A stretch of DNA of 64,000 bases from a virus, in IMG/VR virus record IMGVR_UViG_3300037454_000906, positions 1 through 64,000 of that record, one strand, 5' to 3'. A program made the position numbers and the translations under genes. Under the pieces are notes generated by a model. It was not told the origin of the DNA, ran no database searches, and saw only the letters and a program-made list of their open reading frames with translations. Positions 17,856 to 29,954 of this stretch are shown piece after piece; within the stretch, counting starts at the first letter, position 1; each line of letters opens with the position of its first letter.

Positions 17856-17930
17856 TCGTACCGGGGAGATTCGAACTCGCCAACCTCTGCCTTCGGAGAG
17901 CAGCGCTCTATCCAGTTGAGCTACGGTACG
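17856..17930 (-). tRNA. tRNA-Arg(CCG)
   Basis: Acceptor CGTACCG/CGGTACG; D arm GCTC-AACTGGATA-GAGC; anticodon stem CTGCT/GGCAG with loop CT-CCG-AA; TTCGAAT loop with one C:C mismatch in the T stem; CCA not encoded. Confidence 0.88.
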
Positions 17931-18429: not shown

Positions 18430-19887
18430 GTGAACTACCCACCGCCTAAAGAGCTTCGGTTCTTGCCATCGACACCGAGTCTTGCCTGTATGCAATCGGA
18501 TTGCAAATCGGTATAGGACCTAGCTCCGGCGAGGCTTGTTCCAAGCACTCAGCTCTTTTTGACGAGCCAATCATCAAGACCACGCGAGCAGAATGGATAT
18601 CCCTATCCATGGTATAGCCACAGCCGCACTTGTAGATACGGTCGGCTAGAGTAGGATGGTTGATGCATCCACAAACTGGACATAACTTGGTAGTCGGTTC
18701 CCACTTGGAAATCTTGAAGCTACGGCCACTTGTTTCCAATGCAACTAGCCTCTGCTTCAATGCACCAAGACAGGAGGACTGCACTTGCTTACCGAACAAT
18801 CCCTTATGCCAGTTCTTAATCTGCTCGTCTTGAAAGTATATAACATCATAGTCGGTTACCAACTTGTGGTAGATTTTATTGGCCATATCCTTGCGGACAT
18901 TGGCAATATGCTCGTACTCACGCTTCAGTTGACGAAGACACCTGTAATACCGCTTCGACCCCTTCTCGTTCTTTTTCTTCCCTCTACGGTTCAGTTTCCG
19001 TGACAGGAATTTCAGGCGGTCCGTTTCTCGCACATTACACTTGTACTTGTCACCGTATGATGTCGTTATGGAATCCTTTATTCCGAAGTCGAGACCAACG
19101 TTACGGTTGGTAGGAATCCTCCTCTCCTTCGGTAGCATTACGCTAATCTTTACGTAGTAGCCAGACGCCTTGCGGATTAGCTTGGCATCGGCAAGTTCAA
19201 ACTTATCGAATTGATGCAACTGGTTCAGACCATGAACTCGCAACTTGCGGAACCCGGGAATGGTTATCCGACAACCATCCAATATCTGCGTAAAACCGGT
19301 AATTATCGGAAGGCAGTTCACTTGCGACTTGAACTTCAATGCACCGACCTTGACACCTTTCTTCTTTGCCTTGGCAAGGTTGACAATGTCCGTCTTTTTC
19401 TGTGCCACCGTTGCCCTATGAAGAACCGATGGCAATGTAACTGTATCCGTTATCGGGTTCTTGTCCTTGTCGTAGTGGACTACATCCTTGTGGTCGGTGT
19501 ACTTGTAGTCGAACATGCTATTGTCTGGGTTGCCCTTGGACAACGACAGCATGTCGTTGATTACCCACTTCGCCTCCTTGAAGCATTGTGCCAGCTTCTG
19601 GAAGGTCTCTTTCGGGTTGTGTCGTATGGACACTTTAAGCTCGAATACACGGCAGACTTGGGTCTGCCGTCTGGCCTTCGTCGCGGACATGCTTGCCCGT
19701 ATCTTGGCCTTCGTATCTTCGCTTCTTACAAGTTCCATATCTAGTTTCTTGACTTCAATTAAAGTTTATAATATCTTAACTCAAATATAATATGTTTTAA
19801 CGGCTTAGAATGTTATTTATTTCTTACATTATTTATCGGCGGGTCTTACCCACGCCTTAAAGGGCGTGAGTTTGTGACCGCCTAGTT
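18430..19887 (-). mobile_element. IS200/IS605-family element carrying tnpB only (IS1341-like)
   Basis: Left end follows TTGAC (19892-19888) and has hairpin CTCACGCCCTTTAAGGCGTGGG; right end ...GGCGGTGGGTAGTTCAC ends at 18430; no tnpA inside. Confidence 0.85.
18446..19738 (-). CDS. tnpB: TnpB RNA-guided endonuclease (430 aa)
   Basis: RuvC-I VGLDFGIKD, RuvC-II region YFQDEQI, zinc finger CPVCG/CGCG, RuvC-III DRDIHSA; tail runs into the right end. Confidence 0.9.
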   Translation of the reverse strand: MELVRSEDTKAKIRASMSATKARRQTQVCRVFELKVSIRHNPKETFQKLAQCFKEAKWVINDMLSLSKGNPDNSMFDYKYTDHKDVVHYDKDKNPITDTVTLPSVLHRATVAQKKTDIVNLAKAKKKGVKVGALKFKSQVNCLPIITGFTQILDGCRITIPGFRKLRVHGLNQLHQFDKFELADAKLIRKASGYYVKISVMLPKERRIPTNRNVGLDFGIKDSITTSYGDKYKCNVRETDRLKFLSRKLNRRGKKKNEKGSKRYYRCLRQLKREYEHIANVRKDMANKIYHKLVTDYDVIYFQDEQIKNWHKGLFGKQVQSSCLGALKQRLVALETSGRSFKISKWEPTTKLCPVCGCINHPTLADRIYKCGCGYTMDRDIHSARVVLMIGSSKRAECLEQASPELGPIPICNPIAYRQDSVSMARTEAL

Positions 19888-27378: not shown

Positions 27379-27843
27379 TTAGTATTTGTCCATTTCGGCT
27401 ATTTCTGCCAGATCATCGGCATCATAGTCCCAGGTAGTTCCTTCTCTCACCGATTTCATGAACCCTTCCCAGAGGTGCCTGTCGGAGTCGAGATTTCCAT
27501 TGAATAATTCACCGAATCCAAACCACCCCTTATCATGCGTACGGGCATAGAACACCCTCGGTTCCTCCTTGTCGGGCTCCGGGTATCCTTCCGTAACGAC
27601 AATGAAGTCGGTTGTTTCGGCGAACAGCCAGTAACTGTTCTTGACGGCCTGTTGCCACATCGCGAAAGCATCCTTCATGTCTTCGCGGGTCTGGAAATCC
27701 TTAAAGGGGATTACTTCAATCACCTTGTCGAGGTAATGCCTAGACAGGCGAATCTTCCCATCGTCGAACACATGGTACACCTTTCCGACTTCGGGAACCA
27801 CGTCGGTTTGATCCTTATCATAAATGTTTGGTATCTTCATCAT
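27379..27843 (-). CDS. Hypothetical protein (MMKIPNIY..., 154 aa) abutting the CRISPR array
   Basis: The listed 263-aa ORF is inflated by read-through of the array; plausible ATGs at 27843 and 27840. Confidence 0.65.
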   Translation of the reverse strand: MMKIPNIYDKDQTDVVPEVGKVYHVFDDGKIRLSRHYLDKVIEVIPFKDFQTREDMKDAFAMWQQAVKNSYWLFAETTDFIVVTEGYPEPDKEEPRVFYARTHDKGWFGFGELFNGNLDSDRHLWEGFMKSVREGTTWDYDADDLAEIAEMDKY

Positions 27844-28404
27844 GTTAGTCACCATGCGACCCAGTGGGGATGCTATCGAACGCGGCGGGGCATAGAAGTT
27901 TCGCGGAGTTGTAGTCACCATGCGACCCAGTGGGGATGCTATCCTGGGACACCAATGAAATACTCCGTTCAGTGTTGTAGTCACCATGCGACCCAGTGGG
28001 GATGCTATCTTATATGGGCGAAGGCCGCAGATTGTGCCCGTTGTAGTCACCATGCGACCCAGTGGGGATGCTATCGATTCCCGGCACCCTTCGTGTGTAG
28101 GTAGGTTGTAGTCACCATGCGACCCAGTGGGGATGCTATCTGTCATAGTCTCCTGTTGCGGTTTCGCCATGTTGTAGTCACCATGCGACCCAGTGGGGAT
28201 GCTATCAAAAAGAAATTTAATATCTCGGCTCGAACCGTTGTAGTCACCATGCGACCCAGTGGGGATGCTATCACCGAGGGGGCACTGCTCATAGAGAGTA
28301 GAGTTGTAGTCACCATGCGACCCAGTGGGGATGCTATCGCGTCTCGGGAACGACTCATCAACGCGACTGTTGTAGTCACCATGCGACCCAGTGGGGATGC
28401 TATC
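27842..28404 (-). CRISPR. CRISPR array: 9 repeats (36 nt) and 8 spacers (seven 30 nt, one 29 nt)
   Basis: GTTGTAGTCACCATGCGACCCAGTGGGGATGCTATC at 27908, 27974, 28040, 28105, 28171, 28237, 28303 and 28369; degenerate copy at 27842. Minus orientation is inferred from the degenerate end and the gene direction. Confidence 0.97.
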
Positions 28405-28474
28405 CGATTTCTCGTAAGGTGTTGTTTGTCAATGCATTGCAGCATAAGTTAGCAAACTTTTTACCATCTTTTAG

Positions 28475-28495
28475 GCATGGTTTGGGGGCTACACC
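28475..28495 (-). ncRNA. Candidate anti-repeat (tracrRNA-like segment)
   Basis: Plus strand GCATGGT-TTGGG-GGCTACACC is an inverted partial copy of repeat positions 1-16: 7/7 match, 5-nt bulge, then 7/9. Confidence 0.45.
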
Positions 28496-28587
28496 CACCA
28501 TTATTTCCATTCTATGTTGCGTTGCTAACGACGCCATTTTAATTCCTTGTTATTCAAATGGATACATAATATATCCTTGGTACAAAC

Positions 28588-29868
28588 TTAGCAATTTGCA
28601 GCCAATTTGGCAAGTCCCGCTTGTTTAATATTCATGGCGGCATTTACATCGCGGTCATGATGTGCACCACACTTGGCACAGGTCCATTCGCGGATACTGG
28701 TCACCAACTTTTCAGTCAGTTTGTTTCCACAACAATGGCATGTGCGGGATGTATATGCAGGGTCCACTTCGACCACGGTTTTACCATAGGTGGAAGCCAT
28801 AGATTTAATCTTGGTGGCAATCCTGCCCATGGATGCTTCTGCGATGTTCCGGTGAGTAGTCCCGTTTTGACGGTTACTCTTATCGGCAACGTCTTTCAGC
28901 AAACCGCCTTTGATGGCCAAGTCTTCCATGCAGATGACATCAGCATTATCGACCACGAATCTTGCGGTTTCATTGATGTAATTGTTCCTCATGTTATAAA
29001 GTTGTTCGGTTAGTGCCGCAACCTTCTTCTTATAGCGCTTGTAGTTACCCGATTCTGCAACCAGTTTACGCTTTTGGTGTTCCTTCCCATCTTTCCCGGT
29101 AAAAGTGACTACGGTCCATGTACCAGCCCTCATCTTCTTCGCCTGGTAAAATTCAATTTTATTACGAACTTCCTTTACACGCGGATCATCACCGTTACGA
29201 TTGCCCCTAAAATATTTCTTTTTTGTTACAATGGACCTACGGTCAATTTTTCTTCCATCATCAAAGGTAACCGCTGTCGATACCCCGAGGTCGATCCCAA
29301 CCGTATTGCCCGTTTTCGGTAACGGTTCAGCATCCGGCACCTCACAAAGGATGGAAGCAAAATATTTCCCTGTGCTGCTCCTGGAAATTGTGATGGTCCT
29401 TGTTTTCAGTTCAGCGAAGTTGATGTCCTCATAATTCCTAAACTGTATCATCCCTGGGCATTTGGGAACTTTCAACTTATGGCCGTTAACTTTAATCTTG
29501 TCACTCTGGAAACTTCCAGCAATAGATTTTTTATGGTATTCCGGGTGCTTGGCACGGCCCTTGAAGAAGTTGTCAAATGCGGTTTCCAGGTTTCTCTGTA
29601 CACAGTTCAAAGCCCTGGCCTCAATCTCCTTCAAAAAACTGGTAGTTTCCTGCTTCGGGTATATGCTGTAATTGATCTTATGCTTAAACTTGTGGGCTTT
29701 TTTCTCATCGGCGCTCATTCCTTCGATGGATTTCTTGTATTCCTCATAGGCTTCGTTTGCATCATGGAGCATCATGTTGAATATGGCCCTTGCACATACG
29801 ATGGCCTTGGCGAAATAGTTGGCCTGTATTTTGTTGGGGTAGAGCCTTACTTTAAATGCTTTCAACAT
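28588..29868 (-). CDS. CRISPR-adjacent TnpB-like RuvC nuclease (candidate compact Cas12/type V-U effector, 426 aa)
   Basis: N-terminal LKAFKVRLYPN (IS605 OrfB-type); RuvC-I VGIDLGV, RuvC-II CMEDLA, zinc finger CHCCG/CAKCG, RuvC-III DRDVNAAMNI; no IS end hairpins in the flanks. Confidence 0.85.
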   Translation of the reverse strand: MLKAFKVRLYPNKIQANYFAKAIVCARAIFNMMLHDANEAYEEYKKSIEGMSADEKKAHKFKHKINYSIYPKQETTSFLKEIEARALNCVQRNLETAFDNFFKGRAKHPEYHKKSIAGSFQSDKIKVNGHKLKVPKCPGMIQFRNYEDINFAELKTRTITISRSSTGKYFASILCEVPDAEPLPKTGNTVGIDLGVSTAVTFDDGRKIDRRSIVTKKKYFRGNRNGDDPRVKEVRNKIEFYQAKKMRAGTWTVVTFTGKDGKEHQKRKLVAESGNYKRYKKKVAALTEQLYNMRNNYINETARFVVDNADVICMEDLAIKGGLLKDVADKSNRQNGTTHRNIAEASMGRIATKIKSMASTYGKTVVEVDPAYTSRTCHCCGNKLTEKLVTSIREWTCAKCGAHHDRDVNAAMNIKQAGLAKLAANC

Positions 29869-29954
29869 AAGCGCCTCATTGGTTCGTTGTTATTGATGCC
29901 CATACGATGTACCCTCGTGTACCACCGGATCGGGAGTACCCGGTACACGGTCGG

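Follow-up and report, generated by a model that had tools for sequence, protein, structure and literature searches.

A TnpB-family nuclease coupled to a CRISPR array in a jumbo phage: a probable TranC-type transposon-CRISPR intermediate

A viral record of 253,117 bp (IMG/VR IMGVR_UViG_3300037454_000906) has, within its first 64 kb (these 64,000 nucleotides are referred to below as the window), a TnpB-family nuclease gene, a conserved noncoding scaffold RNA and a CRISPR array, arranged in that order on the minus strand. The record is 99% complete as estimated by CheckV and is described as a jumbo phage. We conclude that this locus is quite probably a TranC-type system, a transposon-CRISPR intermediate, residing in a phage. 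It belongs to a known kind of system, of which it represents a new lineage and possibly a new clade. The evidence for this conclusion comes from the family membership and fold of the nuclease, conservation of the gene-scaffold-array arrangement among homologs, RNA covariation, the transcribed strand, and spacer turnover.

The array has a period of 65-66 nt, and its eight spacers are all unique and measure 29-30 nt each. Eight of the nine repeats are identical, while the copy farthest from the tnpB-family gene carries three mismatches, all of which fall in the guide-adjacent pseudoknot element described below. This degenerate repeat shares sequence with the start codon of the gene that comes next (27379-27846). 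On the minus strand, every spacer sits 3' of its repeat, and 183 nt of noncoding sequence separate the stop codon of the nuclease gene from the first repeat. No further copies of the 36-nt repeat were found elsewhere in the 253,117-bp record, and the gene-scaffold-array locus is single-copy in this genome.

The product of the nuclease gene, P0001, matched the Pfam families HTH_OrfB_IS605, OrfB_IS605 and Cas12f1-like_TNB. Comparison with the NCBIfam model guided_TnpB (NF040570) gave a score of 229.7 bits against a cut-off of 100. The Cas12f2 model of the same collection gave 43.6 bits against a cut-off of 450, and all Cas12 models remained far under their cut-offs. The PADLOC Cas12f profiles, which have no curated cut-off, gave 167.8 bits, a lower score than that of the TnpB model. 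The RuvC triad (D193, E315 and D407) and the four zinc-ribbon cysteines (CxxC...CxxC) did not vary across the clade alignment. Among solved structures, ISDra2 TnpB was the nearest in sequence (E = 1.8e-35), compared with 6e-13 for LaTranC and 1e-6 for Cas12f. The alignment with ISDra2 TnpB was interrupted where residues 210-272 of the query face residues 208-235 of ISDra2, leaving about 35 extra residues in P0001. This insertion after RuvC-I is conserved in the clade, and many of its residues are invariant.

An AlphaFold model of P0001 was built on a 49-sequence alignment (predicted local distance difference test score, 88.3; predicted template modeling score, 0.72). In the model, the insertion (residues ~211-272) forms a helix (229-248) and a beta-hairpin (250-271) placed directly before the long RuvC helix (274-307). 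Fold comparison ranked the TnpB structures highest (Z = 28.0 for 8IAZ and Z of about 27 for 8EXA and 8H1J), followed by Cas12f (Z of about 21) and LaTranC (Z = 20). By both sequence and fold, P0001 is nearest to ISDra2/ISFba1 TnpB rather than to Cas12f or LaTranC; it descends from an IS605-lineage TnpB and stays near TnpB in size and fold. A preliminary description of the locus had reported a 426-aa TnpB-type protein with the RuvC acids and a zinc ribbon, an insertion of about 35 aa after RuvC-I, and nine 36-nt repeats with 29-30-nt spacers at a distance of 183 nt from the gene. These features were all borne out: the protein by Pfam, NCBIfam and the clade alignment, and the insertion by the break in the ISDra2 alignment and its conservation.

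A search of 5.8 billion proteins identified about 20 clusters at 54-87% identity to P0001, followed by a sharp fall to 34% or less for ordinary IS200/IS605 TnpBs. In a quick maximum-likelihood tree, the P0001 clade was monophyletic, with a stem of 1.43 substitutions per site and a Shimodaira-Hasegawa-like approximate likelihood ratio test (SH-aLRT) support of 100. Genomic contexts were fetched for twelve homolog clusters. In every readable clade member, the same conserved scaffold follows the stop codon and is followed in turn by a repeat. Arrays come after the gene in the window and in loci L024, L026, L211-L219 and L216. The L024/L025 homolog (64% identity) has an array of six repeats, members of the P0142 family (66% identity) have 3 to 8 repeats, and L026 (54% identity) has three tandem modules of 5, 3 and 1 repeats, each preceded by its own scaffold copy. 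Most of the short Logan contigs of the clade end within or exactly at the first 36-nt repeat, as assemblies do at arrays. The closest homologs of P0001 keep arrays, and they are not the array-less, insertion sequence (IS)-borne TnpBs that the preliminary description had named as the contrary case.

Flanking genes differ between loci, even in comparison with the 87%-identical homolog, indicating that gene, scaffold and array form a self-contained cassette. The homolog contigs are phage-like, with many small open reading frames (ORFs) lacking a family assignment, an integrase and Phage_VG64; several are of gut-metagenome origin, going by their record names. When IMG/VR, JGI metagenomes and GTDB genomes were scanned with protein patterns, no further clade members came up and the matches were all generic TnpBs with no more than 34% identity; the scaffold core did not occur in the rest of IMG/VR. 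The clade is apparently restricted to phages.

A single repeat-like unit abuts the next gene in two loci of one sub-lineage (L021/L022 and L201). This sub-lineage groups as sister to the one that holds P0001 (support 96) and is nested inside array-bearing lineages, and the single repeat is thus derived rather than ancestral. Most simply, the single-repeat state would be an array that has collapsed back to an omegaRNA-like RNA. The reversion of an array to an omegaRNA has been described for another lineage by Altae-Tran et al. (PMC10691335).

The noncoding stretch between gene and array is far from featureless and forms a folded, omegaRNA-type scaffold that is conserved across the clade. Three covarying hairpins were detected in the scaffold by RNAalifold. 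To these hairpins, a six-helix model adds a long-range helix, a helix in which an anti-repeat pairs with the repeat's 3' half, and a pseudoknot formed by the invariant loop of hairpin 2 (Table 1). In this model, 87.1% of cells are paired, versus 31-49% in controls with the partners shifted by 1-3 columns. Compensatory change was found in 19 of the 36 pairs, and none of 500 shuffles reached the observed values. When the two repeat-contacting elements were considered alone, 90% of cells were paired versus 29-45% with slid partners, and again the covariation score was reached by 0 of 500 shuffles. Within the pseudoknot, a loop G-to-A change and a repeat C-to-T change occur together in the single-repeat loci, and in L203 and module 1 of L026 the anti-repeat helix has compensatory changes at both of two neighboring pairs. 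Single-sequence folding of the scaffold region was uninformative (z = -0.45). An alternative anti-repeat, in which a CCATGC scaffold segment would pair with the repeat, showed zero compensatory change, could not be told apart from shuffles, and was rejected in favor of the helix just upstream of the array.

Many pairs of the six-helix model are U:G pairs, which are valid in minus-strand RNA only. These pairs fix the transcribed strand. Each repeat is thereby followed on its 3' side by its spacer, the arrangement of type V systems and the one that the preliminary description had proposed. In the ISDra2 omegaRNA, a pseudoknot involves positions -6 to -2 beside the guide, and this element is kept in all Cas12 guide RNAs (PMC10097598). 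The predicted guide-adjacent pseudoknot of the present locus is the counterpart of that element, and in the model the CRISPR repeat can be recognized as the final 36 nt of an omegaRNA, reiterated. The GTTGTAG end of the repeat had initially been taken as a hint of a type II-C array. Its reverse complement is the pseudoknot element beside the guide, which covaries with the hairpin loop of the tnpB-adjacent scaffold and explains the GTTGTAG end better; the type II-C hint is unsupported.

Table 1. Coordinates of the nuclease locus, its RNA elements and the variant arrangements found in homologs
Feature	Position	Strand	Basis or remark
TnpB-family nuclease gene (P0001, 426 aa)	28588-29868	minus	ORF call, Pfam, NCBIfam, alignment, structure model
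CRISPR array, nine 36-nt repeats and eight spacers	27842-28404	minus	repeat search
First repeat, contiguous with scaffold	28369-28404	minus	repeat search, covariation, sequence
Degenerate terminal repeat, trailer end of array	27842-27877	minus	repeat search
Conserved scaffold RNA, omegaRNA/tracrRNA type	28405-28587	minus	clade alignment, covariation
5' leader of nuclease gene	29869-29954	minus	upstream alignment, sequence
Predicted helix 1	28522-28529 with 28448-28455	minus	six-helix model
Predicted hairpin 2	28495-28500 with 28483-28488; loop 28489-28493 forms pseudoknot	minus	six-helix model
Predicted hairpin 3	28462-28480	minus	six-helix model
Predicted hairpin 4, GNRA-capped	28432-28445	minus	six-helix model
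Predicted anti-repeat	28413-28421, pairs with first-repeat positions 28377-28385	minus	six-helix model
Predicted pseudoknot	28371-28375 of first repeat (-7 to -3 from guide) with hairpin-2 loop	minus	six-helix model
Single-repeat members, scaffold and one repeat-like unit	L021:7309-7472; L201:3070-3237		abut promoter or start codon of next gene
Tandem scaffold+array modules (two or three)	L026:5807-7304; L211:4282-4990; L216:3053-4270; L204:587-847		each scaffold matched to its own repeat variant

At the L204 locus, copies of the scaffold and repeat are present upstream of the gene as well.

The preliminary description had raised the question of whether homologs keep arrays with differing spacers, and they do so even when the protein is identical. 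Ten contigs encode an identical 426-aa homolog, P0142, and seven of the ten share one three-spacer set. L216 and L211, which encode the same P0142 protein, have wholly different spacers together with a second scaffold+array module. The array is alive, and its spacers turn over between strains. In three lineages, the guanine-cytosine (GC) content of the spacers follows that of the carrier phage, with values of 53% versus 52% for the present phage and 44% versus 42-43% in the P0142 family.

In the mechanism that we propose, an IS605-lineage TnpB nuclease would have shed its transposon context, and its omegaRNA would have been divided into a scaffold of ~183 nt and a 36-nt terminal segment that came to be reiterated as the CRISPR repeat. 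Minus-strand transcription probably covers gene, scaffold and array, and the scaffold is predicted to fold into four covarying helices, with the 3' half of each repeat pairing with the anti-repeat and bases -7 to -3 pairing with the hairpin loop to give the pseudoknot. The first repeat-spacer unit could act in cis, in the manner of an omegaRNA. From the architecture of the locus and by analogy with TranC and Cas12f, we infer that later repeat-spacer units would pair with the scaffold in trans, as a CRISPR RNA (crRNA) does with a trans-activating crRNA (tracrRNA). The loaded nuclease would then use its intact RuvC site to cut DNA that matches the 29-30-nt spacer beside a 5' transposon- or protospacer-adjacent motif (TAM/PAM). 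Such a system is likely to act in conflicts with rival phages, or with other mobile elements, that share the host.

Systems of this kind have been reported previously. TnpB-like nucleases with downstream arrays and without adaptation genes were catalogued in 2023 as the V-U* groups (PMC10691335), and transposon-CRISPR intermediates were named TranC (Jin et al., Cell 2025, doi 10.1016/j.cell.2025.09.004), as described in PMC13565253, PMC13639567 and bioRxiv 10.64898/2026.03.27.714800. Landfill megaphages also carry TnpB-sized ORFs adjoining arrays (PMC12607003). The suggestion of the preliminary description that the locus is a TnpB-to-Cas12 intermediate stands insofar as a TnpB-derived nuclease is coupled to an array on a phage; a reading of it as a new kind does not, since such systems had already been published under the names V-U* and TranC, with some examples in phages.

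The present locus shares with TranC a TnpB-sized, IS605-descended nuclease, a downstream array, the lack of cas1/cas2 and an omegaRNA (or reRNA) split into scaffold and repeat. Also in keeping with TranC are the conserved association with arrays and a guide RNA that derives from the omegaRNA, with an anti-repeat in the scaffold and the repeat as its former 3' end; here, covariation supports the anti-repeat:repeat helix and the guide-adjacent pseudoknot, and single-repeat members have this unit as one continuous RNA. The closest description is that of TranC clade 3 (OsTranC3), which resembles ISDra2 TnpB, has only an enlarged bridge-helix region in RuvC, and uses 32/36-bp repeats (10.64898/2026.03.27.714800); P0001, at 426 aa with a single insertion ahead of the long RuvC helix and an array of 36-nt repeats, was matched to it by description only. 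LaTranC, a member of clade 11 and the only solved TranC, is distant (E = 6e-13, Z of ~20), and its expanded recognition (REC) and wedge (WED) domains are absent from P0001. Further points of difference are that the P0001 clade is phage-borne and includes tandem scaffold+array modules and collapsed single-repeat members.

Compared with ISDra2/ISFba1 TnpB (8H1J, 8EXA and 8IAZ; PMC10097598), the locus has the same domain order, catalytic and zinc residues, a guide RNA 3' of the gene, and a guide-adjacent pseudoknot. However, it lacks TnpA, transposon ends and multi-copy spread, its scaffold lies wholly after the stop codon, its terminal 36 nt are reiterated with eight 29-30-nt spacers, and its nuclease carries the insertion of ~35 aa. 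V-U* systems and Cas12f (V-F) likewise combine an array-associated TnpB-like effector with a downstream array and no adaptation genes (PMC10691335). Cas12f differs in its enlarged REC/WED domains and in acting as a dimer, and its models and structures fit P0001 less well than those of TnpB. Other single-effector phage CRISPR systems without cas1/cas2 are CauTranC9, Cas12r, Cas-phi and Cas-lambda, which are used or proposed for mobile-element conflict. CauTranC9 is a TranC found in a phage and reported with targets (bioRxiv 10.64898/2026.03.27.714800), and the phage-encoded Cas12r of Thermus Lalka phages was experimentally active against rival mobile elements, with documented targets (bioRxiv 10.64898/2026.04.20.719267). 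The effectors of these systems belong to other lineages, and in contrast to the documented targets of CauTranC9 and Cas12r, none were found here.

Several observations weigh against our assignment of the locus to the TranC type. The covariation was computed between the scaffold and its contiguous repeat, which taken alone proves folding in cis only, and the energies of free repeat-scaffold duplexes were no better than those obtained with shuffled repeats. In the window itself, the anti-repeat helix pairs at only 7 of 9 positions. Searches of INPHARED, of 220 fetched loci and of the phage's own genome found no protospacer for ~35 spacers of four lineages, and none was found in IMG/VR for spacers 1, 2 and 5 of the window. 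The phage is devoid of adaptation machinery that would account for its uniform 30-nt spacers.

The transposon context of the locus bears on an explanation that we consider unlikely, in which the cassette is a selfish TnpB/omegaRNA element and the array consists of tandem omegaRNA 3' ends that provide several homing guides, serving the retention of the module or its spread between phage genomes rather than defense or competition. Consistent with such an element, the protein is nearest to bona fide TnpB, the module occurs in unrelated neighborhoods even for the 87%-identical homolog, single-repeat forms exist (L021 and L201), and phage or plasmid protospacers were not found. However, the only Y1 (IS200/IS605) transposase of the phage lies at 186,545-186,922 on the plus strand (L221), 157 kb from the locus. 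No left end was found, and the cassette is single-copy in a 99%-complete genome. Its spacers are unique, uniform in length and variable among strains with identical protein, unlike guides fixed by an insertion site, and the single-repeat lineage, nested within array lineages, is derived.

The leader of the nuclease gene contains a hairpin, then a CAA-rich stretch, then a ribosome-binding site, an arrangement common to L032, L024 and L026. It is of the kind that this phage places before many cassette genes, and other homologs have sigma-70-like promoters in the same position. Judged from its sequence, the leader is not an IS left end. The statement in the preliminary description that the locus has no IS ends holds for the left end, and a transposase is missing as well, but an omegaRNA-like tail does come after the gene. 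None of the ORFs neighboring the nuclease gene matched a Pfam family.

Two simpler arrangements were also tried and rejected. [quoted passage not shown] A single omegaRNA with one guide fixed by its flanks does not fit nine repeats with eight distinct spacers that differ between strains.

In agreement with the preliminary description, no adaptation genes were detected in the phage genome. A profile search did not find Cas1, and no Cas2 scored above the cut-off, the sole Cas2-like signal reaching 15.1 bits against a cut-off of 23.8. This subthreshold signal is located at 92,517-92,633 on the minus strand (L017), inside a 155-aa open frame near a second CRISPR locus. The second array (~87,513-88,009, outside the window) consists of eight 36-nt repeats that are unrelated to the repeat of the 27842-28404 array, and it is adjoined by an 894-aa ORF at 88,346-91,030 on the minus strand (L208). 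One phage carries two single-effector CRISPR systems with different repeats.

An orphan array serving a Cas effector encoded elsewhere, whether a host type II-C or type V effector or the phage's second system, with the TnpB gene a mere neighbor, is in our judgment very improbable. Mini-arrays with which phages borrow host Cas proteins are an established phenomenon, a 36/30 geometry is what Cas1-Cas2-built arrays typically show, and this phage does carry a second CRISPR system. Nevertheless, both the guide-adjacent end and the 3' half of the repeat covary with the tnpB-adjacent scaffold across lineages with differing repeats, and arrays accompany the TnpB clade through unrelated genomic contexts. 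Further, the U:G pairs fit only minus-strand RNA; in such RNA the spacer comes after the repeat, on its 3' side, which is the type V layout, and not before it, on the 5' side, as in type II. The repeat of the second phage array is unrelated, and the present repeat occurs nowhere else in the genome.

Target searches returned no protospacer. The window's whole array and the arrays of a homolog gave no match or only chance-level matches in INPHARED (E of at least 0.09), and all spacers produced only self matches against the phage's own genome and the fetched loci. The IMG/VR search covered spacers 1, 2 and 5 of the window, and exact 20-mers of spacers 1 and 2 found no match there. Spacer 5 (28076-28104) agrees with genome positions 99,482-99,510 (L207) at 24 of 29 positions, a likeness above 200 of 200 shuffled controls and marginal after correction for eight spacers. 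The site lies inside the phage's own terminase-large-subunit-like ORF (99,324-100,736; PHROG terminase, E = 8.5e-41). For this spacer, a degenerate scan of IMG/VR found only a near-identical relative with the phage's own version of the site, and the codon-degenerate version of the scan yielded nothing beyond motif-level look-alikes (21-22 of 29 positions). The likeness may stem from a spacer that was acquired from a related phage's homolog.

Although TnpB-derived repressors exist (reviewed in PMC13565253), the promoter or start of the next gene comes after the repeat in single-repeat homologs, and spacer 5 resembles the phage's own terminase-like site, a domesticated, guide-directed regulator of the TldR kind that silences phage or host genes is highly implausible here, since TldRs are nuclease-dead whereas the RuvC triad and zinc ribbon of this clade are invariant, no spacer fits the phage's own genome well enough to guide, and spacers turn over between strains.

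Our assignment of the locus to the TranC type can be extended to a bolder proposal, which we regard as doubtful. The phage-restricted clade would gain and lose spacers without a Cas1-Cas2 of its own, by a noncanonical form of uptake, and would flip between the array state and a re-fused, single-guide omegaRNA state. Such uptake might rely on a TnpB-dependent activity, or the omegaRNA 3' segment might be duplicated and capture new flanks in the process. If true, this would show how nascent type V systems obtained memory before recruiting Cas1-Cas2.

The current picture of type V origins is unchanged by these results, which enlarge the set of recently described transposon-to-CRISPR intermediates by one well-resolved lineage. 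Study of this transition is eased by close relatives that differ in state, some with an array, some with tandem scaffold+array modules and some with a single repeat that has re-fused into an omegaRNA. Further advantages for study are the covariation-supported RNA model, an identical effector with differing spacers and a complete phage genome without adaptation genes. With a nuclease of 426 aa and a scaffold of about 220 nt, the system is also a candidate compact editor.

Other TnpB-like genes are present in the same phage. The Y1 transposase adjoins TnpB copies at 182-186 kb that are 36-39% identical to P0001. Within the window, a second TnpB-like ORF (430 aa, with OrfB_IS605 and TNB domains) lies at 18446-19738 on the minus strand, just upstream of a tRNA gene (17856-17930, minus strand). 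This ORF was missed by the P0001 search and thus belongs to another TnpB lineage.

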